Below, one piece after another: positions 5,385 to 44,318 of a stretch of 64,000 nucleotides of DNA; position 1 is the first letter of the stretch; each line of letters begins with the position of its first letter. The stretch is from a virus: the IMG/VR virus record IMGVR_UViG_3300045988_137804, positions 1-64,000 of that record; one strand, written 5' to 3'. Under the pieces are notes generated by a model that made no database searches, was not told the DNA's origin, and saw nothing but the letters and a program-made list of their open reading frames with translations. The translations under genes were made by a program, and so were the position numbers.

Positions 5385-6965
5385 ATGGTAAATGAGATTA
5401 TTAATGGACTTGGTGTTTTAGTTCCTGTAGTGATTGTAGGAGCAGGTGGAATTGGAATTGTTGGTTCTGGATATGTAAAAGCATCGCCAGATAAAGCCTA
5501 TATCATTTCTGGTTTAAGAAAAGATCCAAAAGTTCTTATTGGAAAAGCTGGGCTTAAGATTCCATTCTTTGAAAAGAAAGACGAGCTAAATCTTCAGTTA
5601 ATTCCAATTGATGTAAAAACATCAAGTGCAGTTCCAACAGCAGATTACATCAACATTAACGTTGATGCAGCAGTAAACGTAAAGGTAAGTAGCGACACAG
5701 AAAGACTTAAACTTGCAGCAGAGAACTTTCTTAATAAACCAACTGACTACATTGGACAGGTTGCAAGAGAAGTTCTTGAGGGTAATATGCGTGAGATTGT
5801 TGGCAAAATGAACTTGGAAGAAATGGTTTCCGATCGTCAGAAGTTTGCAGAACTCGTAAAAGAAAATGCCGAACCAGATCTTGCTGCAATGGGACTCGAC
5901 ATTGTGAGCTTCAATGTACAGAATTTTGTTGATGAAAATGGAGTAATTGAAAATCTTGGTGTTGACAACATTGTTAAAATTCAGAAAAATGCAGCTATTT
6001 CAAGAGCTGATAGCGAAAAAGAAATTGCCAAGGCTCGTGCTATGGCTAAAAAAGAAGCGAATGATGCAGAGGTAACTTCTGAATTGGAAATTGCAAATGC
6101 TCAGGCTGAAGCACAGAAGAAGAAAGCAATTGTACAGGCTAACGCAGATAGAGAGTCAAGAGAAGCTCAAATTGCAGCAGACACACTTATTGCACAGAAA
6201 GAAAATGAACTTGAAATTAAAAAAGCAGAACTTCAGAAAGATGCTGATACGAAAAAGGCTTCAGCAGATGCAGCTTATAGTATTCAGGAAGAAAATGAAA
6301 GAAAATCTGTGGAGATTGCTACGGCAGATGCTAATCTTGCTAAACAGGAAAAAGCTGTGGAGATTAAAGAGAAAGAGATTGCACTCACAGAAAAAACTCT
6401 TGAAGCTACTGTAAAGAAACAGGCTGAAGCAGAAAAATATGCAAAACAGCAGGAAGCAGATGCAAGACTGTATGAAACACAGAGAAAATCAGAAGCAAAT
6501 CTTTTTGAGAGACAGAAAAATGCTGAAGCAGAGAAGTTTGAACGTGAGAAAGAAGCTGAAGCTATGAAAGCAACAGCAGAAGCTAACAAATATGCTATGG
6601 AACAGGAAGCAGAAGGTATTCGTAGTAAAGGACAGGCTGAAGCCGATGCAATCAAAGCAAAAGCTCTTGCAGAAGCAGAAGGTATTCAGAAGAAAGCAGA
6701 AGCAATGAAACAGATGGGTGAAGCAGCAGTTCTTGATATGTATTTCAAAGCTATGCCAGAAATCGCCAAGAATATCGCAGAACCTCTTGCCAAAGTTGAC
6801 AAAATTACAATGTATGGAGATGGAAACTCTTCAAAATTGATGAAAGATATCATGAACACTCTTAATCAGGTTACAGATGGTATGAAAGAGTCAACTGGAA
6901 TCGACTTAAATTCTATTCTTGCAGGTTTTGCAGGTGCTAAAATTGCTGAATCTACAGACAAATAA
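5385..6965 (+). CDS. flotillin-like SPFH (band-7) domain protein
   Basis: N-terminal TM segment, an SPFH core (YIISGLRKDPKVLIGKAGLKIPFFEKKDELNLQLIPIDV...MGLDIVSFNVQNF), then a long A/E/K-rich coiled coil as in FloT/YqiK. Strong RBS AGAGGAGAAAG. Confidence 0.85.
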   Translation: MVNEIINGLGVLVPVVIVGAGGIGIVGSGYVKASPDKAYIISGLRKDPKVLIGKAGLKIPFFEKKDELNLQLIPIDVKTSSAVPTADYININVDAAVNVKVSSDTERLKLAAENFLNKPTDYIGQVAREVLEGNMREIVGKMNLEEMVSDRQKFAELVKENAEPDLAAMGLDIVSFNVQNFVDENGVIENLGVDNIVKIQKNAAISRADSEKEIAKARAMAKKEANDAEVTSELEIANAQAEAQKKKAIVQANADRESREAQIAADTLIAQKENELEIKKAELQKDADTKKASADAAYSIQEENERKSVEIATADANLAKQEKAVEIKEKEIALTEKTLEATVKKQAEAEKYAKQQEADARLYETQRKSEANLFERQKNAEAEKFEREKEAEAMKATAEANKYAMEQEAEGIRSKGQAEADAIKAKALAEAEGIQKKAEAMKQMGEAAVLDMYFKAMPEIAKNIAEPLAKVDKITMYGDGNSSKLMKDIMNTLNQVTDGMKESTGIDLNSILAGFAGAKIAESTDK

Positions 6966-8169: not shown

Positions 8170-8592
8170 ATGAGATTTTCTGAAGCAATCGAACATCTTC
8201 TTAACGGAGAACGCATAAAGGAAGCGTGTTGGGAAAATGGTTATTACATCAAGCTGGAAAACGACAAAATTGTGGATTGTGATGGATCAGCAGAAGTGTT
8301 CGATAGTAAAGACATTATATCTAACGATTGGGAGCTATATCAGCCTAAATTAGATGTAGGTGCGGTTATTCAATACAATGACGGTACAATCGGAATTGTG
8401 CTTAGTTTATCTGAACTAGATAAGGAATACATCATTTTAGATGAGAATTGGTGCGTAGAAACAGTGAATGAAAGCCAGGTTTCATTAATCAATATTGACT
8501 ATGGAAAAGTTAGTTTGCATGAAGATTCTGCGAGTAAAAATCTCAAAAGTATAGTTTTATCATTACAGATGATTTCAGAGTTAGTAAATTAA
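8170..8592 (+). CDS. DUF2829-like protein (family that, to my recollection, includes the Thoeris anti-defence protein Tad2)
   Basis: N-terminus MRFSEAIEHLLNGERIKEACWENGYYIKL fits the remembered DUF2829 start (M.F.eAl.al..G..v.R..W). The C-terminal half is unassigned. Confidence 0.4.
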   Translation: MRFSEAIEHLLNGERIKEACWENGYYIKLENDKIVDCDGSAEVFDSKDIISNDWELYQPKLDVGAVIQYNDGTIGIVLSLSELDKEYIILDENWCVETVNESQVSLINIDYGKVSLHEDSASKNLKSIVLSLQMISELVN

Positions 8593-8666
8593 TGATTTTA
8601 TCCACTACGAAGTGGAGAATAAATAAGTATAAAGTTTAAGTTTCAAAGATTAAAGGAGAAAACATT

Positions 8667-9311
8667 ATGAGTACAATTGAGAAAATGAGTGTTCACAAAG
8701 CATTAGCAGAGTTAAAGATTATTGATTCCAGAATTGAGAGATCAATTGATGATGCACAGTTCTGTGTAGCAAACAAACATTCTAATGAAAAGATTAATGG
8801 TATTCCGGTTGAGGACGCTAAGAAGTTAATGGTTGGAAGTTACGACAAAGCATCAGATCTTATTAAGAGAAGAAATGCAATCAAGAGAGCAGTTGTGCTT
8901 TCTAATGCTAAGACAATTGTTACGATTGCAGACAGAGAATATACTGTTGCAGAAGCAATTGAGATGAAAAATCATGGCATTGAGTTTGAGGAATTTCTTT
9001 TAAATGAAATGAGATGTCAATACGCAGATGCTAATAGAACTATCTCAGCAGAGAATGGCGAAAAACTGAGTGAAAGAGCAGATAAATTTGTCATTGACAT
9101 GTATGGATCAAAAGAGGGTAAAACAAATACTGCTGATTTTGAGAAAGCAAAGAAAGATTTTATCACAGCAAATTCTTATGACTTGGTTGATCCACTTGAT
9201 ATCAAGAAGAAGATTGATGAATTGGAAGAATATATCTCAAACTTCAAGACAGAAGTAGATGCTGCATTAAGTGTTAGCAATGCTATTACAGAAACTACTG
9301 TAGAGTATTAG
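8667..9311 (+). CDS. hypothetical protein
   Basis: AAAGGAG RBS, 214-aa ORF, no motif recognised. Confidence 0.6.
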   Translation: MSTIEKMSVHKALAELKIIDSRIERSIDDAQFCVANKHSNEKINGIPVEDAKKLMVGSYDKASDLIKRRNAIKRAVVLSNAKTIVTIADREYTVAEAIEMKNHGIEFEEFLLNEMRCQYADANRTISAENGEKLSERADKFVIDMYGSKEGKTNTADFEKAKKDFITANSYDLVDPLDIKKKIDELEEYISNFKTEVDAALSVSNAITETTVEY

Positions 9312-9507
9312 AGAATATATAAATAGGAAATTATTTCACTGTTTGCTGAAAACTTAGAACTACAATCATTCAGACTTTTGCAAGTATAGCCTGAATCAAA
9401 ATAATAAAGAAGCTTGCAACATAATAAAACATAAAAAGCAAGTATAGCAAATTATTACAGGAATGCTTGATGCACAGTGTTGAGCGTTTATAAATTACAA
9501 GATGACT

Positions 9508-9594
9508 GTAAAGAGTAAAGTTCAAATGTCAAGTAGTAAAGCTCAAAATTCAAAGATTATTTTTTATGTAAAGTTTAAGCAGTAAATAGTAAAG
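9508..9594. repeat. five GTAAAG-centred degenerate direct repeats (iteron-like)
   Basis: GTAAAG at 9508, 9515, 9536, 9568 and 9589, with similar flanks (AGTAAAGTTCAAATGTCAA / AGTAAAGCTCAAAATTCAA). Lies inside a 430-nt ORF-free stretch. Confidence 0.5.
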
Positions 9595-9744
9595 ATATAA
9601 AGTTTTATAAAATCTTCGACAAACAGTTTTCAGTATGATTGTACTTGGCTGTAAGTTGTCTGCGAAGCTAGTAAATGGTGAATTAATTAATAAATGTCAA
9701 CCTACATAATAATATGCATAGTTGTCGTGAGGGTTGGCAAATAT

Positions 9745-9833
9745 GGATCATTACATCAACTGGTAAGATGAGCTGCCTCATAAGCAGAAAGCCCTAATAA
9801 GGTATAAACTGGGTTCGACTCCCAGATGATCCA
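9745..9833 (+). tRNA. tRNA-like gene, anticodon CAU, unusually long (20-nt) variable region
   Basis: Acceptor GGATCAT/ATGATCC, D arm CATC-AACTGGTAA-GATG, anticodon loop CTCATAA, T arm CTGGG-TTCGACT-CCCAG. 89 nt, no encoded CCA. Confidence 0.55.
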
Positions 9834-9968
9834 CTGTATCTGAATATTCACAGAATGTGTTATTCGTTTCCTTTCTTTCTATGAACATTCTAGTTCAGAT
9901 ACAATGTTTTTCATAACTTCCTTTTGTTTGGTTGGCAACTTACCATATAGACAAAAAAGTTGCAATAA

Positions 9969-10039
9969 TGGGCTGTGGTGTAATGGTAGCACATAATACT
10001 TTGACTATTATAGATCCAGTTCAAATCTGGACAGCCTAG
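9969..10039 (+). tRNA. tRNA-Gln (UUG)
   Basis: Canonical cloverleaf: TGGGCTG/CAGCCTA acceptor with U1-A72 as in bacterial tRNA-Gln, anticodon arm TAATA-CTTTGAC-TATTA, T arm TCCAG-TTCAAAT-CTGGA. Confidence 0.85.
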
Positions 10040-10124
10040 CTTGTGAGATTTTGGAACGTCTCACAAATATTACTCCTTTCATGGGTTATTTATAGTGCAA
10101 AAGATGTGCAGAAATGCACATCGA

Positions 10125-10210
10125 GCTGGCATGGCGGAATTGGTAGACGCAATGGACTTAAAATCCATCGGTAAAAACACACCATACGAGTTCGAGTCTC
10201 GTTGCCAGTA
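10125..10210 (+). tRNA. tRNA-Leu (UAA)
   Basis: Type II tRNA: D arm GCGGAATTGGTAGACGC, anticodon arm ATGGA-CTTAAAA-TCCAT, long variable arm, T arm ACGAG-TTCGAGT-CTCGT. An 8-bp GAAA-tetraloop hairpin (10103-10122) lies immediately upstream. Confidence 0.8.
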
Positions 10211-10367
10211 TTAGCCATATGAGACACTTATTCCCTGAGCAAGAATGATGAAGTCGGTACAAAAGTGCTCAATTTCTGTATTTTACATTCGTGTGTTATG
10301 CAAGCAGCACGAATGACATATGGCATTAACCCCCAACATAGGGTATTTACATTTTACAAAAATGGTT

Positions 10368-10437
10368 TGGCTGTTAGTTCAGTGGGAAGAACATCTATTG
10401 CAAGAGAGGGTCACAGGTTCGAGTCCTGTACAGTCAA
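10368..10437 (+). tRNA. tRNA-like gene with a non-canonical anticodon arm (possible GCA/Cys)
   Basis: Good acceptor (TGGCTGT/ACAGTCA), D arm (GTTC-AGTGGGAA-GAAC) and T arm (ACAGG-TTCGAGT-CCTGT). The anticodon region folds only as a 3-bp stem TCT/AGA with an 8-nt loop ATTGCAAG. Confidence 0.4.
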
Positions 10438-10505
10438 CTTGACGCAGAAAACATTTGATTTTTGCATTCATGTTTTGCACGCCTCATTTCTTCAATGTGC
10501 AAAGT

Positions 10506-10627
10506 AGATTGTTAGTTCATTGGTAGAATATCTTATTGAAAAATAATGTAATCCTGTTCTTTTCGCTTTCTTAACGATGTGATGCATTATTAATAGGAAG
10601 AAACACGTTCGAATCGTGTGCAATCTA
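10506..10627 (+). tRNA. tRNA-like gene (possible GAA/Phe) with a roughly 51-nt insertion in the anticodon loop
   Basis: Acceptor AGATTGT/GCAATCT, D arm GTTC-ATTGGTA-GAAT, T arm ACACG-TTCGAAT-CGTGT. The anticodon stem TCTTA (10531-35) / TAGGA (10594-98) encloses 58 nt instead of 7. Confidence 0.4.
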
Positions 10628-10714
10628 TCAGTCTTGGTTGACTTACCACTTTCAAACGAGGACTTTAAATTCGGTAGTAAAGTGGAGAATAATAATCATA
10701 GGTGGTGAAAAATT

Positions 10715-11056
10715 ATGAGATGTCCGTATTGTGACAAAGAAATGATTAAGAAGTACAAGATTAAGCACTTCTGTAATTTCGATGATCCGTGTGACTCATG
10801 GGAAAAAGAAATACATATCTGTAAGAAGTGTGGTATCAAGAAAGTAGATGGCAAGTGGAAGATTCCACATAAGTACAGAAGACCATCAACTAATCAGATT
10901 CGCAGATGCAAGACTTTAGCTAAGATACACGACATAGATTTTGAGCCACTTCTTGCCAGACAATGCAAGAGATTCATCACAACAATGCTGAAAAAGTTAT
11001 ATGTTCAGGATCATTATTGTGATGGAGAACTCCATATCATTGGAGAGAATAAATAA
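10715..11056 (+). CDS. hypothetical zinc-ribbon protein
   Basis: CPYC ... CKKC pairs. GGTGGTG RBS. Confidence 0.55.
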   Translation: MRCPYCDKEMIKKYKIKHFCNFDDPCDSWEKEIHICKKCGIKKVDGKWKIPHKYRRPSTNQIRRCKTLAKIHDIDFEPLLARQCKRFITTMLKKLYVQDHYCDGELHIIGENK

Positions 11057-32385: not shown

Positions 32386-35300
32386 ATGGTAAGAGTTATT
32401 AAAAGAGATTGCTCTGAAGTTGATTTTGATAAGAATAAAATTTCAACGGCAATCTTAAAGGCTATGAAAAATGGTAGCGGAATTGTTAAACCCAAAATTG
32501 CGGAATCTATTGCAGATGAGATTGAAAAGGAATGTAAGGATCGAGAAGAGATTGATATTTCTGAAATTGAAGCAATGGTATTTGACAAGCTGATTACCAA
32601 AAAACAGAGACTTACTGCAAGAGCATATGAAGGTTATAGAAGTACAAGAGAATTCCAGAGAGAGAATGAGAATACTGTTGACGAGGAAATTCTTGGAATT
32701 GTAGAAGCAAACAACGAAGAATGGAAAGATGAAAATGCGAATAAAAATCCAGCATTAAACCCTACAATTCGTGATTATATTGCTGGATCTGTAAGTAAAG
32801 ACGCAACAAAAAGATTTTTATTATCTCCAGAAATTATTCAGAGTCATTTAGAAGGAATTATTCATTTCCATGATTCAGATTACTTTATTCAACATATGCA
32901 TAACTGCGGATTAGTAAATCTTGAAGATATGCTTCAGAATGGTACTGTTATTAGTGAAACAATGATTGAAAAGCCACATAGTTTTTCTACAGCATGTACC
33001 GTGACTACTCAGATCATTGCTCAAGTTGCATCTAGTCAGTATGGTGGACAGAGTATCTCACTTGCACATCTGGCACCGTTTGTGGATGTTTCCAGAGAGA
33101 AGATCCGTAAGGAAGTGATCAGCGAGCAGGAACTGGTCGGAATGGAATATCCGGAAGATGTGCTCAATGAGATCGTAGAGAGAAGACTGAAAAAAGAGAT
33201 TACAAAAGGTGTTCAAACAATTCAGTACCAGTTAATCACACTTATGACAACAAATGGGCAAGCACCGTTCATCACAATTTTTATGTATCTGAATGAAGCA
33301 AAGAATGAGAGAGAAAAGAAAGACCTAGCGATGTTAATTGAAGAAATGTTACTTCAGAGAAAACTTGGTGTGAAAAATGAAGATGGTGTTTATATTGCAC
33401 CAGCATTTCCAAAACTCATTTATGTTCTTGAGGATGACAATTGTAACGAATCAACAGAATATTGGTATTTAACAGAACTTGCTGCCGAATGCACGTCAAA
33501 AAGATTAGTTCCAGATTACATCTCTGAAAAAGTAATGAAAGAACTTAAAGGTGATGTGTATACATGCATGGGATGTGTTGATGGAAAAGAACTTGTTACA
33601 TATACATATAACAATAATCTTTACGTTGAATCATTTGAAAGAATGTGGAATAGACTTTCTGATAGATTTGAAATAAAACATCAGTATAATGACAACAACC
33701 CAAATCTATATATGGATTTGAGCGATGTAGAAATCTATGACACAGACAAAGGATTTGTTAATACAGAGAGAATAATCAGAAATATATCAACCTCTTGGCT
33801 TGATGTTAATTTTTCCAACGGAAGAAGATTACTTTGTACAGAAGATCACCCACTTACATTAAGAGATGGAAGAACAATCCATGCATCTGAATTAAAATTA
33901 AAGGATAGAATTCTCATTAATTCACATCAGTATAATGAAGAAAATATTGTATTCAATGAAGACAAGGCGTGGTTGTTAGGTTTTATGCTTTGTGATGGAT
34001 GTTATCAAGGCTCTTTATTTTCTTCAATTGCAGCAGAAAATGAAGATGAAATTGCAGATAAGTTTTCAGAAACAATGAAGAAATATTTTGATCTCGATAT
34101 TGAAAAAAAATTACAGCAAAGAGGTAAGAAAGGAACATATTACGATTTGATTGCACATAGTCAGAATGAAAAAATATCTGTGTATTGTAATTATTTCGCT
34201 AAAAAATTCGAAGGTCTGAATAAGATTGATAGACATGTTCCTAATGAAGTATTTTCATGGAATTATTCGTCAAAACTTGCTTTCCTGGCAGGAATGATTG
34301 ATGCAGATGGGTACATTAATAGTTCTCAGAATAAAGGATTTTCTATAGTTCAAATTGGTTCTACAAACAAAGAACTTGCATTACAACAAATGGCACTTGC
34401 ACAGTCTTTAGGTATGCCAGCAAAGCTGTACCATAACCATTACAGTAAACGTAACCCAGAATTGATTAGATACAGAGTTGAGTTTTATCCAACAGATGAA
34501 CTAATTAATTATATTGTATGTAAAAAGAAATATGATAATTATATTGATTCAAATGTATCTAGTTATAATCATGAATCTGAAGTTACTGAAATCAACAAAA
34601 TTAATAAAAAAATGTTTTCTTACGATGTAACAACAACAAGTGAGCATTTTGAAATTAGCGGAATCTATAGTCATAATTGTAGGTCTTTTTTAACTGTTGA
34701 TAGATTTTCTGATAAAGTTGGAAACATTTCTAACGCTAAAAACTTTAATGGAAAACATAAATATTACGGAAGATTTAATCAGGGTGTTGTTACAATTAAT
34801 CTTCCAGATATTGCATTTTCATCTGATGGCGACATGGATAAGTTTTGGGGAATTTTCGAAGAAAGAACAGAATTATGCCATAAGGCTTTAAAGGCTAGAC
34901 ATAACCGTTTGCTTAAAACTTCTTCTGATATTGCACCAATCCTGTGGCAGAACGGAGCATATGCAAGACTTAAAAAACATGAACCAATTGACAAACTTTT
35001 ATTTGATGGATATTCAACGATTTCTCTTGGATATGCAGGACTTTATGAGTGTGTGAAATATATGACAGGAAAATCCCATACAGATGGTGATGTAGGAGAA
35101 AAGTTTGGATTGGAAGTAATGCAAGCATTAAATGATAAATGTAATCAGTGGAAAGAAGCTGAAAACATTGATTATAGTTTGTATGGCAGCCCAATCGAAA
35201 GCACTACGTATAAATTTGCAAAGTGCTTAAAAAATAGATTCGGTGATGATATTTTTATTAAACTTGATGGATTTGATAGAAATTATATTACAAATAGTTA

Positions 35301-35730
35301 TCACGTTCCTGTGTTTGAAAGAATTACAGCATTTGACAAATTTAAAATTGAATCAAAATTCCAAAACCTTAGTCCAGGAGGCGCAATTTCGTATTGTGAA
35401 ATCCCATCAATTAACGTAAATATTCCAGCATTATTGGAAGTAATTAAATTTATTTATGACAATATTATGTACGCAGAAATCAATACAAAAGATTGTTATT
35501 GCGAAGTGTGTGGATACGATGGAGACATTCCACTTATTGACGATGATAACGGTAAACTTGTATGGGAATGCCCTAATTGTGGCAACACAGATAATACAAA
35601 AATGGACATCGCATTTAGAGTTTGTGGTTATGTTGGTACTGCAAAAAATGGTGGAAACCAAGGAAGATATGGAGATATCCACGATAGAGTTTACCACATC
35701 GATGACTTTGAATACGAGGAAAATGAATAA
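32386..35730 (+). CDS. nrdD: anaerobic ribonucleoside-triphosphate reductase (class III), interrupted by an intein
   Basis: ATP-cone start VIKRDCSEVDFDKNKI, conserved MGC|RSFL site split by the intein, C-terminal zinc site CxxC...CPNC and glycyl-radical motif RVCGYVG. Confidence 0.9.
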   Translation: MVRVIKRDCSEVDFDKNKISTAILKAMKNGSGIVKPKIAESIADEIEKECKDREEIDISEIEAMVFDKLITKKQRLTARAYEGYRSTREFQRENENTVDEEILGIVEANNEEWKDENANKNPALNPTIRDYIAGSVSKDATKRFLLSPEIIQSHLEGIIHFHDSDYFIQHMHNCGLVNLEDMLQNGTVISETMIEKPHSFSTACTVTTQIIAQVASSQYGGQSISLAHLAPFVDVSREKIRKEVISEQELVGMEYPEDVLNEIVERRLKKEITKGVQTIQYQLITLMTTNGQAPFITIFMYLNEAKNEREKKDLAMLIEEMLLQRKLGVKNEDGVYIAPAFPKLIYVLEDDNCNESTEYWYLTELAAECTSKRLVPDYISEKVMKELKGDVYTCMGCVDGKELVTYTYNNNLYVESFERMWNRLSDRFEIKHQYNDNNPNLYMDLSDVEIYDTDKGFVNTERIIRNISTSWLDVNFSNGRRLLCTEDHPLTLRDGRTIHASELKLKDRILINSHQYNEENIVFNEDKAWLLGFMLCDGCYQGSLFSSIAAENEDEIADKFSETMKKYFDLDIEKKLQQRGKKGTYYDLIAHSQNEKISVYCNYFAKKFEGLNKIDRHVPNEVFSWNYSSKLAFLAGMIDADGYINSSQNKGFSIVQIGSTNKELALQQMALAQSLGMPAKLYHNHYSKRNPELIRYRVEFYPTDELINYIVCKKKYDNYIDSNVSSYNHESEVTEINKINKKMFSYDVTTTSEHFEISGIYSHNCRSFLTVDRFSDKVGNISNAKNFNGKHKYYGRFNQGVVTINLPDIAFSSDGDMDKFWGIFEERTELCHKALKARHNRLLKTSSDIAPILWQNGAYARLKKHEPIDKLLFDGYSTISLGYAGLYECVKYMTGKSHTDGDVGEKFGLEVMQALNDKCNQWKEAENIDYSLYGSPIESTTYKFAKCLKNRFGDDIFIKLDGFDRNYITNSYHVPVFERITAFDKFKIESKFQNLSPGGAISYCEIPSINVNIPALLEVIKFIYDNIMYAEINTKDCYCEVCGYDGDIPLIDDDNGKLVWECPNCGNTDNTKMDIAFRVCGYVGTAKNGGNQGRYGDIHDRVYHIDDFEYEENE
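33574..34677 (+). mobile_element. 368-aa intein with a LAGLIDADG homing endonuclease inside nrdD
   Basis: Starts at Cys (CVDGKELVT) right after YTCMG. Block B TEDHP. Two LAGLIDADG motifs (LLGFMLCDGC, LAGMIDADGYI). Ends ...IYSHN followed by the +1 Cys of CRSFL. Confidence 0.85.
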
Positions 35731-37719: not shown

Positions 37720-38203
37720 TAAAGTTAGTTTTGAACAGTTTAAAAAAGATTGGATTGATACATTTGGAGATGTAACAGAAGATAAGATTAAAGAGGTTTA
37801 TGATAACATTAAATTGCCAAAAAGAGCTACTGCAATGTCAGCAGGTCATGATATAAGCATTCCATTTGATACAAGTATTAAGAATGGCGAGGTTGTAAAA
37901 ATTCCTACCGGAATTCGATGCAAAATGGATGATGGATATGTAATGTTTGTGTTCCCCCGAAGTAGCATGGGAATTAAAAAAGGAATGGTAATTTGTAATA
38001 CTATTCCTGTAATTGATGGAGATTATTTTGGAGCAGATAACGAAGGTCATATCTTTATTTGTGTCACAAATACATACAAAAAATCAATAGAATTAAATTC
38101 TGGGGATAATATTGTACAGGCAGTTTTCACTAAATTTGGTGTAGCAGATGACGAAAAAATTACAGAAAAACGATTGGGAGGAGTTGGTAGCACTGGATTA
38201 TAA
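37697..38203 (+). CDS. dut: dUTP diphosphatase (trimeric dUTPase)
   Basis: Motifs SAGHDI, PRSSMGIKKG, IDGDYFG and RLGGVGSTG. Confidence 0.85.
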   Translation: MQRIAKFSKVSFEQFKKDWIDTFGDVTEDKIKEVYDNIKLPKRATAMSAGHDISIPFDTSIKNGEVVKIPTGIRCKMDDGYVMFVFPRSSMGIKKGMVICNTIPVIDGDYFGADNEGHIFICVTNTYKKSIELNSGDNIVQAVFTKFGVADDEKITEKRLGGVGSTGL

Positions 38204-38855
38204 ACCTATAGATTTTGACGAATCAAAAGAAGTATGGAAATTATGTGATGATTATCCTGGCAATTATATTAGTAATTATGGAAGAGTTAAAAGGGATTCT
38301 TATACATATCATTATAAAAATGGAAAAATAAAAAATTACAAGCCTATAATAAAAAAATTAACTGAAACTAGCAAAAGGAAAGGTACAATTCAAGGGTATT
38401 TATGTACTCGAATGATTGGTTCTGATGGAAATAGTAAATGTGAAATGGGTCATAGGCTTGTAGCAAAAGCTTTTATTCCTAACCCAAATAACCTACCTAC
38501 AGTAAATCATAAAAATGGCAATAAACATGATAACCGAGTAGAAAATTTAGAATGGACTTCTTATTCTGACAACAATCAACATGCATACGCAAATGGCTTA
38601 AAAGGCGATAATGTTATAATGCTACAAGTTGACCAAGATAATTATATCAAACAAATATATTTTTCTGAAGAATATGCAGCGTTATGTAATTGTTTATCTA
38701 CGAAAAACATTAGAAATAGTTCTGAGAAAAATACGTTAGATTATTATAATAATAAATGGATTAGATTTTATCCAAACAAATACAAAATTACAGTAGACGA
38801 CAACGCAACGGAAGTTCGCAATGGTGGTTTCGGATCTACAACAAAATCTAAATAA
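38148..38855 (+). mobile_element. HNH homing endonuclease (NUMOD4-like N-terminus plus HNH_3 core)
   Basis: WKLCDDYPGNYISNYGRVKR, then HRLVAKAFIPNP...VNHKNGNKHDNRVENLEW. The ATG overlaps the dut 3' end by 56 nt, so the start is uncertain. Confidence 0.8.
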
Positions 38856-39518: not shown

Positions 39519-39863
39519 ATGCAGAAAAAGAATTACAAAGGTCGCTGCGAGAAATTAACAGTGCCAAAATCTAAGGATGTCTGCCATATCTATAATGACA
39601 TCCAAAAGTCTTATCTATTACAACTTCAGGACGATCCAAACATCAAAGAGATAAAATGTAATGTCCTTATGCTTGGATTGGAACTTGGAGAATTCACATC
39701 TGATTTTCAGTGTGTTACAGCAGACAACAATCTAATAGTGCGTGAATGTATCTCACGAGATGCTATCGCCAAACCAATGACAGCAAAACGATTAGATGCT
39801 TCAAGAGAGTATTGGTTTCGTCATGGCATAACAGATTGGGGGATTGTAACCGATGAAAAATAA
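39519..39863 (+). CDS. tnsA: short TnsA-like protein (endonuclease N-terminal-domain-like, 114 aa)
   Basis: AAAGGAG RBS. LQDDPNIKEI...GEFTSDFQCV...LIVRECIS...REYWFRHGITDWGIVTDE resembles the TnsA core (..YTPDF.V....EVK....E.yW...g..w.ivte). The expected E and K positions do not look conserved. Confidence 0.45.
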   Translation: MQKKNYKGRCEKLTVPKSKDVCHIYNDIQKSYLLQLQDDPNIKEIKCNVLMLGLELGEFTSDFQCVTADNNLIVRECISRDAIAKPMTAKRLDASREYWFRHGITDWGIVTDEK

Positions 39864-41661
39864 GAGTCTATTTTATAATCCAAAAACCAAAGAAATATTT
39901 CGTGTGTTAGACAGTAAAGGTTCAAAAGTTCTTATCATTAATTGCACAAAGAAACAGATGCCTTATTGGACAGAATTCGATTCAATTTCTTCCTGTCGTT
40001 TAATCACAGAAGATGAATTACAGGACATGACTGGCACACATTTTCAAGAACTAACTGTACCATCAAAAGAATACAGATATGTTCAAGAAAGGTTTTCACT
40101 GATTTCAAATATCATTCCTATCATCGGAAATAAAAGCAAGCGTACTCAGATGATACGAATCATATCTGAAACAAATAATTGCAGTAAACAAACAATCAAA
40201 AACATCTTGTGCCAGTATCTCATCTATCAAAATATTTCTGCATTAGCACCGCAAAAGAGCAATGAAAAAGAACTAACAACAGATGAGAAAAACATGCGTT
40301 GGGCATTAAATAAGTTCTTCTATACAAAGAATAAGAATTCATTATCAACCGCTTACGTCATGATGCTTAAAGAAAAATATACAGATGAATACAACAACTT
40401 ATTACCACACCCAACCATTCATCAGTTCCGTTATTTCTATCGCAAAACAAAAAAGATGGAAACGTATTATATCTCAAGAGATGGCATAAAAGATTACCAA
40501 AGAAATCACAGACCATTGCTAGGAGAAGGAATTAGAACAGTTGCAAATAGCATTGGAACAGCTATGTTGGATTATACAATCTGTGATATTTATCTCGTAA
40601 ACGATAAACAAGAATTAATTGGTCGTCCATTAATGACAGCTTGCATTGATGTCTACAGCGGATTGTGTTGTGGTTACTCATTAACATGGGAAGGTGGAAT
40701 GTACAGTTTGCGTTCTTTGATGTTAAATGTGGTCACTAATAAGAAAGAACATTGTAGAAAGTTTGGAATAAATATCGAAGAATCCGACTGGAATTGTCAT
40801 CAATTACCTGCAACATTAATCACAGATAAAGGTTCAGAATATGCGTCAGAAAACTTTGAACAACTTACAGATTTAGGAGTGTCTATTATAAATCTACCAG
40901 CCTATAGACCAGAGTTAAAAGGATCAGTTGAAAAGTTTTTTGATATGATTCAATCACTTTATAAGCCACAGTTACTAGGAAAAGGTGTCATAGAATCTGA
41001 TTTCCAGGAACGTGGCTCACATGATTATAGAAGAGATGCTTGTCTAACATTAGAACAATTTGAAAAAATAATTCTTCGTTGCATCATCTATTATAATACA
41101 CAGAGAATTATCAAAAATTCACCACTGATTGAACAAAATATTCCGCCACATTCTTGTGACATATGGAACTATTATTTGACCTATAATGATGACTTTTTGA
41201 TAAGAATATCGCCACAGAATCTACTTTTATGTTTGCTACCAAGAACGAAAGGAGTGTTTAAAAGAAATGGTTTAAACGTCAATAGTCTCCGCTATAAGCA
41301 TAAAACATACACCGAAATGTATCTTGTAGGAGGAGATGTAACAGTAGCCTACAATCCAGAAGATGTTTCTTACATTTGGCTCATTGAAGAAAATGGAACG
41401 TATGTAAAATTTGAATTAATCAATTCTCAGTTCTATGGAAAGGATTTATCATTTGTAGAAAAATATATGGAGTCATCTAAGAAGCTAATTGCAGAAAATA
41501 CCGATGATAATTTACGAGCAAAAGTTACGCTTTCAAAAGATATAGATTTTGTAATTTCTGAAAGTGTACGTTCTAATGTAAGCACAAAAAATATCCGCAA
41601 GAATCGTCAGAAAGAACAGGAACTTACTCATAGAGATTTCGTAAAGGAGTATGAATTATGA
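39853..41661 (+). CDS. tnsB: TnsB/MuA-family DDE transposase
   Basis: DDE candidates in MLDYTICDIYLV, LITDKGSEYAS and RPELKGSVEKFF. 602 aa. Overlaps tnsA-like by 11 nt. Confidence 0.8.
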   Translation: MKNKSLFYNPKTKEIFRVLDSKGSKVLIINCTKKQMPYWTEFDSISSCRLITEDELQDMTGTHFQELTVPSKEYRYVQERFSLISNIIPIIGNKSKRTQMIRIISETNNCSKQTIKNILCQYLIYQNISALAPQKSNEKELTTDEKNMRWALNKFFYTKNKNSLSTAYVMMLKEKYTDEYNNLLPHPTIHQFRYFYRKTKKMETYYISRDGIKDYQRNHRPLLGEGIRTVANSIGTAMLDYTICDIYLVNDKQELIGRPLMTACIDVYSGLCCGYSLTWEGGMYSLRSLMLNVVTNKKEHCRKFGINIEESDWNCHQLPATLITDKGSEYASENFEQLTDLGVSIINLPAYRPELKGSVEKFFDMIQSLYKPQLLGKGVIESDFQERGSHDYRRDACLTLEQFEKIILRCIIYYNTQRIIKNSPLIEQNIPPHSCDIWNYYLTYNDDFLIRISPQNLLLCLLPRTKGVFKRNGLNVNSLRYKHKTYTEMYLVGGDVTVAYNPEDVSYIWLIEENGTYVKFELINSQFYGKDLSFVEKYMESSKKLIAENTDDNLRAKVTLSKDIDFVISESVRSNVSTKNIRKNRQKEQELTHRDFVKEYEL

Positions 41662-42917
41662 TTAATATGAATAAAGTAATCAAAGAACTTCCTGATATGC
41701 TGTCCGGAAATGAACTTCAGAAAGCAATGTCTATTATTCCAAAATACGACAAACAGATTCAGGAAGATGGAAGTATGACCGAAAGACTTTTGAAATTATC
41801 TGACCTTTATAGCATTTATATTCCATCACAAATGTCTACTGAAATTTATAGCAAACTATATCTTGGAATCATTCGTTCTATGCAGAAAAAAGGAAACAAG
41901 TTAACTGTACAACAATTCAATTCAACTTATAGAACGATGCAGAATATTAAGAATAAAACTGGCAATCAGCAATATGATGGAATCATAGGTGGATCAGATT
42001 CATTTACAATTATTGGTGCAAGTGGGATAGGAAAATCATCAGCTATTTCTCGTGCATTGAATCTGATTGAAGCAAATCATGTAATAGAAATTGAACAGCC
42101 TTACACTAAAATACTTCCATGCTTAACAGTGCAATGTCCATTCGATTCTTCTGTAAAAGGATTATTACTTGAAATTCTTCGCAAAGTTGATGAGCAGTTA
42201 GGAACAGATTATGCACAAACAAAAAGGTTCACGACTGATATGCTTATAGGTGCTGTTAGTCAGGTGTGTTTAAATCATATTGGCTTGCTTGTTGTAGACG
42301 AAATACAGAACGTAGTTAATTCAAAGAACGGCAAGAACTTAATCGGATCATTGACGCAGCTAATCAACAATTCAGGCATTAGCATCTGCATGGTTGGAAC
42401 ACCAGATAGTGAAATATTCTTTGAACAGGCTATGCAATTAGCTCGTAGAAGTGTCGGATTAAAATACACAGCTTTGCCATACGATGAACATTTTTGCGAA
42501 GTATGTGAATGCTTATTTTCTTACCAATATGTAAAAAATATCACATATATAAATAGCACGACTATAGAATGGTTGTATCAACACAGTGCAGGAGTTATCT
42601 CTATTGTTGTATCATTAATTCATGATGCACAAGAGATTGCAATCTTAAATGGGAGAGAAGTATTAGATATTAAATCGTTAGACGAAGCATACAACAATAG
42701 ACTTTCTATGTTGCACGATTATATTAGACCTACTATGAGAAAGAAATCTATCGGCAATAATAAAATAAAGAAACAAAATATCATTACAACTTTGTCGATA
42801 AAAAATAGCGCAGATATTCAAACAGATTTAATACAAAGTCTTGCGAAAGAATGTAAGAAAGATGGAACAGATATTGTAGAAATACTGAGTCAACATATTA
42901 CAATTGAGGTGATTTAA
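41658..42917 (+). CDS. tnsC: TnsC/TniB-type AAA+ transposition ATPase
   Basis: Walker A IIGASGIGKSSAI, Walker B LLVVDEIQN. ATGA overlap with tnsB. Confidence 0.8.
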   Translation: MINMNKVIKELPDMLSGNELQKAMSIIPKYDKQIQEDGSMTERLLKLSDLYSIYIPSQMSTEIYSKLYLGIIRSMQKKGNKLTVQQFNSTYRTMQNIKNKTGNQQYDGIIGGSDSFTIIGASGIGKSSAISRALNLIEANHVIEIEQPYTKILPCLTVQCPFDSSVKGLLLEILRKVDEQLGTDYAQTKRFTTDMLIGAVSQVCLNHIGLLVVDEIQNVVNSKNGKNLIGSLTQLINNSGISICMVGTPDSEIFFEQAMQLARRSVGLKYTALPYDEHFCEVCECLFSYQYVKNITYINSTTIEWLYQHSAGVISIVVSLIHDAQEIAILNGREVLDIKSLDEAYNNRLSMLHDYIRPTMRKKSIGNNKIKKQNIITTLSIKNSADIQTDLIQSLAKECKKDGTDIVEILSQHITIEVI

Positions 42918-44318
42918 ATGATTGGATTTATGCCTAAATTATATCCAGATGAATTAGTGTATAGTTGGATTGCTAGGTATCATGTAAGAACTGGACATTA
43001 TAGTTATCAGCAAACAGCAAAACATCTACTAGATAAGAAAGCAAATATTGTCTCGAAAAAGTTTTTAAACGAATACTCAAATGAATTTTTTAACATCATC
43101 AAAAAGAATATTCCAATAAAAGAGTTAGTAATAAATCATAGTATGCTGTCAGCTTATATTAAATTTTTGCCAAAAGATAAGCGCAATAATCTAATAGAAT
43201 CCTATGAAAACAATTTAAGATATAAAGAGTCATCAATTGGATTTAAGACAAGAAGTAATGGTATTAGTATGCGATATTGTCCTATATGTGTAAAGGAAGA
43301 TCGAGAAAAATATGGAGAAACTTACTGGCACAGAGAACATCAATTTGTTGGAATTAATGTATGCACAAAGCATAAATGTTATCTTATAGATTCCAAAATG
43401 TCTGTAAAAAGTATTGATAAGTCTGAGTTTTATACCGCAGAATATGTCATAGAACAACATGATGATGTTAAGATTTCCAATAATGAGTATGAGATAAAGT
43501 TTGCCAAGTATTTTACAGAAGTCATAAATACAGAGTCAAATAATGACTCAAATATTGTGGAATATCTCAATACTATATTATTGAACTCAAAGTATAGAGC
43601 AAATGGATGTATGCTAAAAGATTTTAATAAATTGTACGATGATTATTCTGAATTATGCGAAAAGATTAATGTAAATATAATTTCTTCACAACCATCGTTA
43701 AGAGAGATATTAAAAAATAAACGCAGAACATTGGATATTTGTATCCTTGGAATGCTATTGAATATTTCGCCTTACGATCTCGTGAATAGAGTATTGCCAA
43801 ATACAAACAAAGAGGATATCAGAGAGCAAGTCATATTTTTAAGAGATGTAAAAAAGATGAGTTATAATCGTATTGCAAAAGAATTAAACGCAAGTAGAAG
43901 AGCAGTTGGTACAATATATCATAGTAAAAAAACTGAAAATGATTTAGATGTTCTTAAACTTCTTAAAGATGAACTGCCAAAATTCTATAATGGAGATTTA
44001 ACTAATGGAAGACCGCAAAAAATAACAGTATACACAGTTGAAAAACAATTTGATATTCCACAAAAAGTATTAATAAATAATAAATCCTATTATAACGAAA
44101 TAATCAAGTATGAAGAGTCTTATCCTGAATATTGGGCGAGAGAATTAGTATGGTCTTATAATAAACTAAAGGAAGATAAAGCATATATAAGTCAAAATAA
44201 AATAACCAAACAAATAAATATTCGTAAGGAGCAACCTGTAAAAGCTATACCATACATCTCTAAATATACAGACAAAGAAACTGCTGAAGCTATTAAATCA
44301 TTATTGCAAAAATCGTAA
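42918..44318 (+). CDS. tniQ: TniQ/TnsD-family target-selection protein with C-terminal HTH
   Basis: N-terminal LYPDELVYSWIARYHVRTGH, zinc module RYCPICVKED...HREHQFVGINVCTKHKCYL, and a later HTH-like MSYNRIAKELNASRRAVGTIY. Starts immediately after the tnsC stop. Confidence 0.8.
   Translation: MIGFMPKLYPDELVYSWIARYHVRTGHYSYQQTAKHLLDKKANIVSKKFLNEYSNEFFNIIKKNIPIKELVINHSMLSAYIKFLPKDKRNNLIESYENNLRYKESSIGFKTRSNGISMRYCPICVKEDREKYGETYWHREHQFVGINVCTKHKCYLIDSKMSVKSIDKSEFYTAEYVIEQHDDVKISNNEYEIKFAKYFTEVINTESNNDSNIVEYLNTILLNSKYRANGCMLKDFNKLYDDYSELCEKINVNIISSQPSLREILKNKRRTLDICILGMLLNISPYDLVNRVLPNTNKEDIREQVIFLRDVKKMSYNRIAKELNASRRAVGTIYHSKKTENDLDVLKLLKDELPKFYNGDLTNGRPQKITVYTVEKQFDIPQKVLINNKSYYNEIIKYEESYPEYWARELVWSYNKLKEDKAYISQNKITKQINIRKEQPVKAIPYISKYTDKETAEAIKSLLQKS

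Follow-up and report, generated by a model that had tools for sequence, protein, structure and literature searches.

We analysed a 64,000-nt stretch of DNA from an uncultivated tailed phage (positions 1 to 64,000 of the IMG/VR record IMGVR_UViG_3300045988_137804; this whole stretch is referred to below as the window), and in it a tRNA-like gene of 122 nt, gene B, at positions 10506-10627 of the plus strand. Gene B lies in a phage tRNA cluster, as a preliminary description of the sequence had proposed. It follows three ordinary tRNAs on the same strand: a tRNA with anticodon CAT (9745-9834; called by ARAGORN and scoring 51 bits on Rfam with permissive filters), which has a long variable arm of about 20 nt, tRNA-Gln(TTG) (9969-10040) and tRNA-Leu(TAA) (10125-10210), the latter two found by both ARAGORN and Rfam. 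Between tRNA-Leu and gene B is a second tRNA-like gene on the plus strand, gene A (10368-10438).

All cloverleaf elements of gene B can be read directly from the sequence, each where the preliminary description had placed it. The 5′ body (10506-10535) consists of the 5′ strand of the acceptor stem, U8 and A9, the D arm (10515-10529, with the loop ATTGGTA that includes G18 and G19), A26 and the 5′ strand of the anticodon stem. The 3′ body (10594-10627) consists of the 3′ strand of the anticodon stem, a 4-nt variable region (AGAA, 10599-10602), the T arm (10603-10619, loop TTCGAAT), the 3′ strand of the acceptor and the discriminator A (10627). The acceptor stem has 7 bp (AGATTGT, 10506-10512, with GCAATCT, 10620-10626), and the gene is followed by TCAG; CCA is not encoded. 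The nucleotides of the tRNA tertiary core (U8, A14, G18, G19, T54, T55, C56 and A58) are all present in the window copy. The anticodon stem also has its regular 5 bp (TCTTA, 10531-10535, with TAGGA, 10594-10598). It encloses 58 nt (10536-10593), and the insertion of about 51 nt in the anticodon loop noted earlier is thus real, at about 51-52 nt of extra sequence in a tRNA-shaped gene. One parse divides the enclosed 58 nt into the equivalent of a 6-nt loop (TTGAAA, 10536-10541) and a 52-nt expansion (10542-10593); the boundary between the two is ambiguous, and the parse is taken from the loops TATAAA and TGTAAA of related genes lacking the insert (see below).

The minimum free energy (MFE) fold and, independently, the RNAalifold consensus of 15 orthologues both returned the cloverleaf with an extended arm. 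In the MFE fold the anticodon stem is lengthened to 9 bp by pairing of TTGA (10536-10539), which spans the putative anticodon bases 34/35, with TTAA (10590-10593). An AAAA bulge (10540-10543) follows on the 5′ strand only, the 3′ strand having no matching 3-nt bulge, and then a 7-bp helix (TAATGTA, 10544-10550, with TGCATTA, 10583-10589), which is seen in both folds and in the pairing of the aligned orthologues; the 3′ strands of this helix and of the 4-bp extension together occupy 10583-10593. The expanded arm is therefore an interrupted helix of 5+4+7 bp, with the AAAA bulge, capped by a loop of 32 nt (10551-10582). The 5′ part of this loop is pyrimidine-rich, and its core, CCTGTTCTTTTCGCTTTCT (10553-10571), is identical in 12 of the 13 copies that carry the insert. 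A small stem predicted inside the 32-nt loop finds no support in the variants.

ARAGORN in its default mode called four genes in the cluster and missed gene B. With the intron option (-i), a check that the preliminary description had suggested, it called gene B at 10505-10629 with a 51-nt intron; this was the sole intron-containing call in the 64 kb, and no call of any kind was made on 20 shuffles of the window. The Rfam tRNA model (RF00005) gave no match at 10506-10627, either at the gathering score or at E≤10. By comparison, the orthologue without the insert that we scanned (locus L005, 8116-8185) scored 42.8 bits against a gathering score of 29. The observation of a complete cloverleaf whose anticodon stem encloses 58 nt, made by ARAGORN -i, by the two folding methods and among orthologues, is real and reproducible.

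Relatives of gene B were collected from IMG/VR by querying it with the tail-fibre-like protein of the window, which gave 80 loci. The protein was 93-97% identical in six of them, and gene B with its insert was present, at 93-95% identity, in four of the six (L001, L002, L004 and L006), with L005 having a copy without the insert and L003 a gene B partly replaced by a mobile element (see below). Scanning metagenomes with a degenerate 21-mer of the D arm added eight insert-bearing copies and one insert-free copy (L120), and a scan with a pattern from the 3′ half added two more insert-free copies (L125 and L126). The comparison set thus has 13 insert-bearing sequences, the window included, and 4 insert-free ones, which form two sister clades; in answer to the comparison with related tRNA clusters called for earlier, the insert is shared by 12 further copies and absent from 4. 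These 12 copies come from gut metagenomes and viromes (93-95% identical where measured), so that gene B with its insert has been recovered in 13 independent assemblies. No copy of gene B was found in 185,579 species-representative bacterial and archaeal genomes, no similarity to the window at the DNA level was found among GenBank phages, and searches with the neighbouring genes returned only the few contigs already found.

Base-pair statistics rest on an alignment of 15 of the sequences (A1). In it, 99% of the cells of the cloverleaf and extended arm pair, compared with 31-51% when the partners are slid by 1-3 columns, and the column pairs 1-7/115-121, 10-13/21-24 and 26-30/89-93 are 99-100% paired. 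Between the clades, acceptor pairs 2-71 and 6-67 are changed on both sides, from G-C to A-U; pair 3-70 runs through the series G-C/G.U/A-U, pair 7-66 through U.G/U-A, and pair 29-41 of the anticodon stem through C-G/U.G/U-A. Within the insert-bearing clade, all six variable pairs of the tRNA stems are still standard pairs, with a probability by chance of about 0.016 (our own estimate, calculated without a dedicated tool, which assumes about 50% pair retention per transition), and this maintenance presumably postdates the insertion. The variable unpaired columns of the body in this clade are tRNA positions 9, 57, 59 and 60, together with 34/35 of the loop; positions 9, 57, 59 and 60 vary in ordinary tRNAs as well. 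U8, A14, G18, G19, T54, T55, C56 and A58 are unchanged throughout the insert-bearing clade, and changes in the T loop are limited to positions 57, 59 and 60, with T54, T55, C56 and A58 invariant. In the 7-bp helix of the insert, pair 44-79 is found as C-G, U.G and U-A, plus one A.G. The alignment thus indicates that the cloverleaf fold is under selection, all four tRNA stems being kept by compensatory and wobble changes.

The same cannot be said of the anticodon. The preliminary description had read the first seven nucleotides of the loop, TTGAAAA, as giving the anticodon GAA and hence the identity Phe. This turned out to be one of several equally valid parses: ARAGORN assigned the window copy to Ile(GAT), with the intron at loop position 35/36, and its orthologues of 93-95% identity to Phe(GAA), Ser(AGA) or Thr(AGT), and gave the insert-free copy in L005 an undetermined 2-base anticodon, 'ta'. 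The loop starts with TTGAAAA in nine of the insert-bearing copies and with TTAGAAA in the other four (L002, L004, L114 and L117), where a GA to AG swap at the putative positions 34/35 changes 'GAA' to 'AGA' on an otherwise unchanged body. The swap turns G.U plus A-U into A-U plus G.U opposite the same two U's; both pairs are preserved, and therefore it is the structure that is kept and not the 'anticodon'. Read from the 3′ side, the anticodon of the insert-bearing copies would be ATT, TAT or AAT. We enumerated all excisions of 51 nt that leave 7 nt, and none yields a common anticodon in the 13 copies. Decoding identity, as judged from these alignments, is not conserved among near-identical orthologues.

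Insert-free copies give no canonical loop either. In L005 the anticodon stem TCCTA/TAGGA closes the 6-nt loop TATAAA, which recurs in L120; the loop of L125 and L126 reads TGTAAA, so that all four loops are of 6 nt. Because of this, removal of the insert would not restore a canonical 7-nt loop. Nor can the insertion point be placed, since both ends of the 58 nt resemble the A/T-rich insert-free loop (5′, TTGAAA; 3′, TATTAA or TATAA). The assignment of the insertion to the canonical intron site at 37/38, made in the preliminary description, was therefore not upheld. In sum, three marks of a decoding tRNA, namely a 7-nt loop in the gene or after excision, a conserved anticodon and a score above the gathering threshold of RF00005, were not found for gene B.

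These results bear directly on the possibility that the insert is a new type of intervening sequence, a hairpin that is cut out by enzymes (a double-strand-specific RNase and an RNA ligase, of host or phage) or by itself, the halves being joined into a decoding tRNA such as tRNA-Phe(GAA). In that case ...ATCTTATTGAA(A) would join directly to (A)ATAGGAAG..., giving a species of about 70-72 nt. In 9 of the 13 copies the loop does open with TTGAAAA, which equals a canonical tRNA-Phe loop, the insert is under constraint, none of the universal tertiary nucleotides is missing from the body, and other mobile or intervening elements abound in the genome (an intein, an HNH endonuclease and a Tni module). 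However, no register gives a shared anticodon, the GA/AG swap producing GAA or AGA on an unchanged body; the 'spliced' state, as seen in the 6-nt loops of insert-free orthologues, is non-canonical; and the 3′ junction of the insert carries 1-nt indels and substitutions. Neither an RNA ligase, RtcB nor a splicing endonuclease was found among the approximately 40 open reading frames (ORFs) scanned in the window, which is a part of the genome, and the ligase that is present is an NAD-dependent DNA ligase. An arm of about 16 interrupted base pairs is also short as a substrate for RNase III. We therefore consider excision of the insert very unlikely. The particular variant in which a 52-nt hairpin, neither a group I intron nor a bulge-helix-bulge, is excised and religated by enzymes, which would amount to protein-dependent tRNA splicing in a bacterial system, we regard as more improbable still.

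Known classes of intron were examined in the same light. Introns of archaeal and eukaryal tRNAs are spliced by proteins at a bulge-helix-bulge, usually at 37/38, and, as in gene B, can be insertions of tens of nucleotides in the anticodon loop that pair with it and extend the anticodon stem. They differ in having two 3-nt bulges 4 bp apart, whereas the folds of gene B show a 9-bp stem, a single 4-nt bulge on the 5′ strand, a 7-bp helix and the 32-nt loop; moreover, the position in gene B cannot be set to 37/38, removal restores no canonical loop, and the setting is a tailed bacteriophage with no splicing endonuclease found in the ORFs scanned. We thus rejected a bulge-helix-bulge. Group I introns of bacterial and phage tRNAs are likewise insertions in the anticodon loop of a bacterial-type tRNA gene, and are about 200 nt or more. 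The insert of gene B, at 51-52 nt (58 nt for the whole loop), was already described as too short for one, and we found no group I core in it and no match at E≤10 to Intron_gpI or any other Rfam intron. Covariance models of small self-cleaving ribozymes (hammerhead, twister, pistol, hatchet, HDV-like and others) gave no match, and a permissive Rfam scan of 10480-10660 gave only chance matches of small nucleolar RNA type, at E>1. A tmRNA or YrlA-type RNA was also rejected, there being no match in the ARAGORN tmRNA search or in Rfam. Protein coding was rejected, as the 43-aa ORF on the minus strand (10492-10623) is broken by 1-nt indels in 4 of the 13 copies. Matches to promoters and terminators at the locus were at the level of consensus only and no more frequent than in shuffles.

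We then compared the variation of the insert with that of its surroundings in the 13 insert-bearing sequences. The insert varies in 9 of 52 columns with a mean pairwise divergence of 4.7%, the 32-nt loop in 5 of 32 columns (4.0%) and the tRNA body in 12 of 70 columns (6.5%). Third codon positions of the ORF that starts 87 nt downstream vary at 46 of 114 sites, with a divergence of 13.8%; relative to these, the deficit of variation is significant for the insert (Fisher's exact test, p=0.004), the loop (p=0.011) and the body (p=0.001). Five of the genomes extend over the upstream gene as well; in these, the pairwise divergence was 6.2% for the insert and 8.3% for the body, compared with 16.0% and 18.7% for third positions of the two flanking ORFs. 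The divergence of the insert is thus well below that of flanking third positions, which argues that the insert is not drifting freely.

It is conceivable that the conserved feature acts as DNA and that its RNA is irrelevant, the insert being what a mobile element has left behind or a miniature form derived from one, or else an allele that shields the tRNA gene from a site-specific nuclease of competing phages. The tRNA clusters of these phages are hot spots of recombination, with anticodon arms swapped and, in L003, a TnpB element in gene B; the window carries an HNH endonuclease and an intein; and a TTATT direct repeat flanks the insert. Against this, the insert is single copy. Its 19-nt core has no second match in the window at up to 3 mismatches, and blastn with short words, run with the whole insert on the window and 130 fetched loci, found no other copy, the sole outside match being a 19-mer that does not extend. 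Dropping one TTATT together with the intervening sequence leaves a 4-nt loop and no clean target-site duplication, terminal inverted repeats are absent beyond the hairpin, and it is pairing at the RNA level that is conserved. An explanation at the level of DNA is, in our view, highly improbable, and a miniature mobile element (a miniature inverted-repeat transposable element or a derivative of an insertion sequence) was rejected, given the single copy, the lack of a clean target-site duplication and the failure of the TTATT repeat to restore a tRNA loop. The 19-mer CCTGTTCTTTTCGCTTTCT corresponds to the antisense of a conserved ORF of 212 aa (...GNRKRKEQAEANEK...) in five gut-phage contigs (L082-L086). 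The identity stops at 19 nt, with not one base further, and no homologue of the ORF is present in the window; as we estimate that a 19-mer identity is compatible with chance in a collection of that size, we do not regard this match as meaningful.

Gene A is aberrant as well. ARAGORN reports it as 'tRNA-???', and it scores 48.1 bits on the Rfam tRNA model; its loop is of 6 nt (TTGCAA), and its anticodon stem is weak, with just three Watson-Crick pairs. In relatives L004, L096, L098, L114, L117 and L124 the D and anticodon region of gene A gives way to a truncated arm without an anticodon loop (...GCGCATATGTATGAAGA...), and in L005 it is replaced by a 6-bp CATATG stem with a 9-nt loop; in these relatives the acceptor and T arms are unchanged. 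Genes A and B agree in 50 of 70 positions, among them those of the run ATCT(T)ATTG(C/A)AA over the anticodon region. They may be tandem paralogues, a suggestion that we make with low confidence because all tRNAs resemble one another.

Taken together, we favour a reading in which gene B encodes a non-decoding tRNA-like RNA with an expanded anticodon arm, and give it about an even chance of being correct. The reasons are that the top arms are kept, that the anticodon site is aberrant in every copy, that the insert is conserved without a signature of splicing, and that in near-identical phages the anticodon arm of neighbouring gene A is truncated or exchanged for another. In gene B, as the alignments indicate, the top half and elbow are under selection and the anticodon region is non-canonical. 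In tRNAs, these two parts are recognised by RNase P, the 3′-end processing enzymes and the CCA-adding enzyme, the top half and the elbow being their landmarks. Of the three options offered in the preliminary description, it is accordingly the tRNA-shaped RNA with another role that we prefer, and the plain pseudogene and the spliced intron that we disfavour.

We envisage gene B as a member of a small, phage-specific lineage, the insert-free members of which have a 6-nt loop and in which the loop would have expanded by about 52 nt in the clade of the window. The gene would be transcribed together with the tRNA array, and its intact acceptor, T-arm and D-arm top half would lead to excision and stabilisation by host RNase P, the 3′ tRNA-processing enzyme and the CCA-adding enzyme. 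The product would be an RNA of about 122 nt plus CCA, with the insert retained, unable to read codons. Its action may depend on the L-shaped body, on the displayed arm or on both, for example by binding a protein or RNA partner, the long arm being either a payload specific to the clade or a tolerated expansion. Possible roles include protein binding, tRNA mimicry toward a host factor and demarcation of the 5′ end of the message encoded downstream, which starts beyond two conserved hairpins (10628-10685).

In a narrower form of the favoured reading, the RNA would be a tRNA mimic serving as decoy or sponge for a host factor that binds tRNA, for instance a tRNA-targeting nuclease of a defence system or an enzyme of modification or processing, where an abnormal anticodon arm would block cleavage or translational use. 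The conserved top half and elbow would suit this role, as would the fast turnover of the anticodon region in gene B, in gene A and in other tRNA scaffolds from related phages. For the PARIS system, it has been documented that phage tRNAs counteract anticodon nucleases (reviewed in PMC11455837). A bait for an anticodon nuclease, however, would be expected to retain a recognisable anticodon loop, which the copies of gene B do not, and nothing in the window links gene B to such a host factor. This specific role is thus decidedly unlikely.

Several observations weigh against a functional non-decoding RNA, and a number of them would be expected if gene B were instead a decaying tRNA pseudogene, with the loop shortened in one clade and invaded by 52 nt in the other, that looks conserved only through youth or recent exchange. 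No copy has a canonical anticodon loop. The T stem of L005 has one A.C mismatch, and G19 is lost in the insert-free sublineage of L125 and L126, where gene A has a T-stem mismatch; the wholesale replacement of the anticodon arm of gene A would also fit decay. Of the few changes within the helices of the insert, about half disrupt pairing (A.G in L096, A.C in L001, G.A in L002, and 1-nt deletions), so that selection on these helices is less clear than on the tRNA stems. At least one relative, L003, dispenses with the gene, in that an IS605-family TnpB element (8500-9790; a 368-aa ORF at 8583-9689 with the Pfam domains OrfB_IS605, Cas12f1-like TNB and helix-turn-helix) replaces the spacer and about the first 100 nt of gene B, and so destroys it. 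With a divergence of 3.4-5.1%, the intergenic spacers equal or exceed the insert in conservation, and the low variation of the insert may therefore reflect the region and not a function of the insert; some constraint that has nothing to do with the insert may act on the whole of 10211-10700, or this stretch may be the product of a recent exchange. A duplex scan of both strands of the window yielded no target for the loop, the best value being -27.2 kcal/mol, compared with -23.3 to -28.0 for eight shuffled loops. Sampling is also shallow (17 copies in two sister clades), so that the covariation depends on few events.

Nevertheless, decay alone does not account well for the way in which the sequence varies. 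Three acceptor pairs are changed on both sides or through wobble intermediates between the clades; in the insert clade, all six of the variable stem pairs stay paired, at the estimated chance given above; changes in the body spare the universally conserved tRNA positions; body and insert are 2-3 times less variable than third codon positions of both flanking ORFs; and the 6-nt loop is stable in four diverged insert-free copies. A plain pseudogene is thus rather unlikely, and a non-decoding RNA remains the reading that we favour. In L003, the 3′ end of the TnpB element, where the guide would be read, abuts the T arm and the 3′ acceptor strand of gene B.

Two conserved hairpins lie directly 3′ of gene B (10628-10641 and 10646-10685, +, the latter with the stem CCACTTT/AAAGTGG), before the ORF that starts at 10715. 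RNAalifold on 11 sequences gives two pairs in this region (10628-10685) with compensatory double changes between the clades. The hairpins may form a leader to the ORF at 10715 or represent a further small RNA. On the other side of the array, an RNA of the RAGATH-27 family (RF03100; 9335-9418, +, 80 bits) lies between the tail-fibre-like gene, which it follows immediately, and the tRNAs, and RAGATH-27 is also found in this setting, at about 6640-6770, in 11 related loci (L001, L002, L004-L006, L033, L043, L046, L052, L061 and L070). A FuFi-1 RNA (RF02986; about 5655-5835, minus strand, 67-75 bits) lies just upstream of the tail-fibre-like gene in L001-L004; in the window, FuFi-1 was below the gathering score.

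The remainder of the window is that of a tailed phage. It encodes the tail-fibre-like protein (8667-9311), a DnaB-like helicase, a primase, a RecJ-like exonuclease, the NAD-dependent DNA ligase, NrdD and NrdG, a dUTPase, a sigma factor, an endolysin and tail proteins. Its polymerase, of 1068 aa, has DnaE/Pol III-alpha-like proteins as best matches among GenBank phages, with 34% identity to that of Brevibacillus phage Sundance, and on this ground we rejected an assignment to the crAss-like phages. NrdD (1114 aa, 32386-35730, +) contains an intein with a LAGLIDADG homing-endonuclease domain at about residues 436-764. An HNH endonuclease gene (38148-38855) lies just upstream of a three-gene, Tn5053/Tn7-like transposition module (39853-44318, +), which encodes a transposase with a Mu-transposase C-terminal domain, a TniB-like AAA ATPase and TniQ.

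Other oddities were seen among phage tRNAs in the collected loci. Homologues of the tRNA with anticodon CAT have the anticodon TAT in L033 (5605-5693) and a 3-nt anticodon loop in L005 (7601-7687). In near-identical phages more distant from the window (L050-L074, about 5681-5957), one and the same tRNA scaffold is found with different anticodon arms, with GAA in some and GAT in others, and for another scaffold GCA or ACA versus CAT. Non-canonical loops, of 8 nt ('catg', 'tttc') or of 6 nt (TTAATT, on a 6-bp stem), are present in tRNAs at L040:4560-4634, L043:8768-8842, L051:5884-5956 and L047:3646-3716; those of L043 and L051 pass the Rfam tRNA model, and no Rfam match is recorded for those of L040 and L047. 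In three contigs unrelated to the window (L094:5581-5680, L102 and L110), tRNA-Gly(GCC) has a 19-nt insert, CAAATTTTATTTTGCAAGA, right after loop position 37, and the same tRNA is uninterrupted in L100, L116, L119 and other contigs, likewise unrelated; judged by its position, this insert looks like a small intron at the canonical site. Long 'introns' reported by ARAGORN in L046 and L080 were artefacts, as Rfam places ordinary tRNAs there and no group I intron.

How does gene B relate to RNAs already described? It shares its cloverleaf and universal tertiary nucleotides with the canonical phage tRNAs that it follows, and its insert-free orthologue passes the Rfam tRNA model; it differs from them in that no copy has a 7-nt anticodon loop or a conserved anticodon, and in that the window copy, with 58 nt in the loop, is missed by that model. 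Non-decoding RNAs that are built on a tRNA-like module, used for processing, stability or protein binding and not for decoding, include the bacterial YrlA/Y-RNA-like RNAs, 'tRNA-Other' of Bacillus cereus and the TMERs of MHV68. The topology of YrlA is the reverse of that of gene B, the tRNA-like module being at the tip of a stem formed by the RNA ends, and in TMERs the hairpins come after the tRNA-like part and not within the anticodon loop; YrlA-type and similar families gave no Rfam match at gene B. The closest architecture, identical to that proposed here, is that of an engineered scaffold in which a cargo hairpin takes the place of the anticodon stem-loop on the acceptor, T and D arms of a tRNA, and which, by experiment, cellular factors recognise and which is precisely processed and stable in E. 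coli (PMC3753655); that construct is artificial, whereas gene B is natural. A looser precedent is the tRNA region of phage T4, which yields two small RNAs that are not tRNAs and have no known role (PMC3014915). Gene B is thus most likely of a kind already known, that of aberrant or tRNA-like genes in phage tRNA clusters, among which a conserved insert and recurring 6-nt loops are unusual.

Clusters of tRNA genes in phages are normally read only as a supply of codon readers or as devices against host defence, and genes such as gene B are silently dropped or mislabelled by predictors, as illustrated by the four different amino acids that ARAGORN gives to near-identical copies. If the insert were spliced, which is unlikely, gene B would represent a new splicing route in bacteria. 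If it proves to be neither spliced nor functional as an RNA, it would be a well-documented case of the decay of a phage tRNA gene, and a caution for annotation. Our results suggest that phages also build non-decoding RNAs on a tRNA-shaped frame, as a natural equivalent of the engineered tRNA scaffold, and, if the RNA is stable and a partner can be identified, gene B would represent a new type of phage small RNA.

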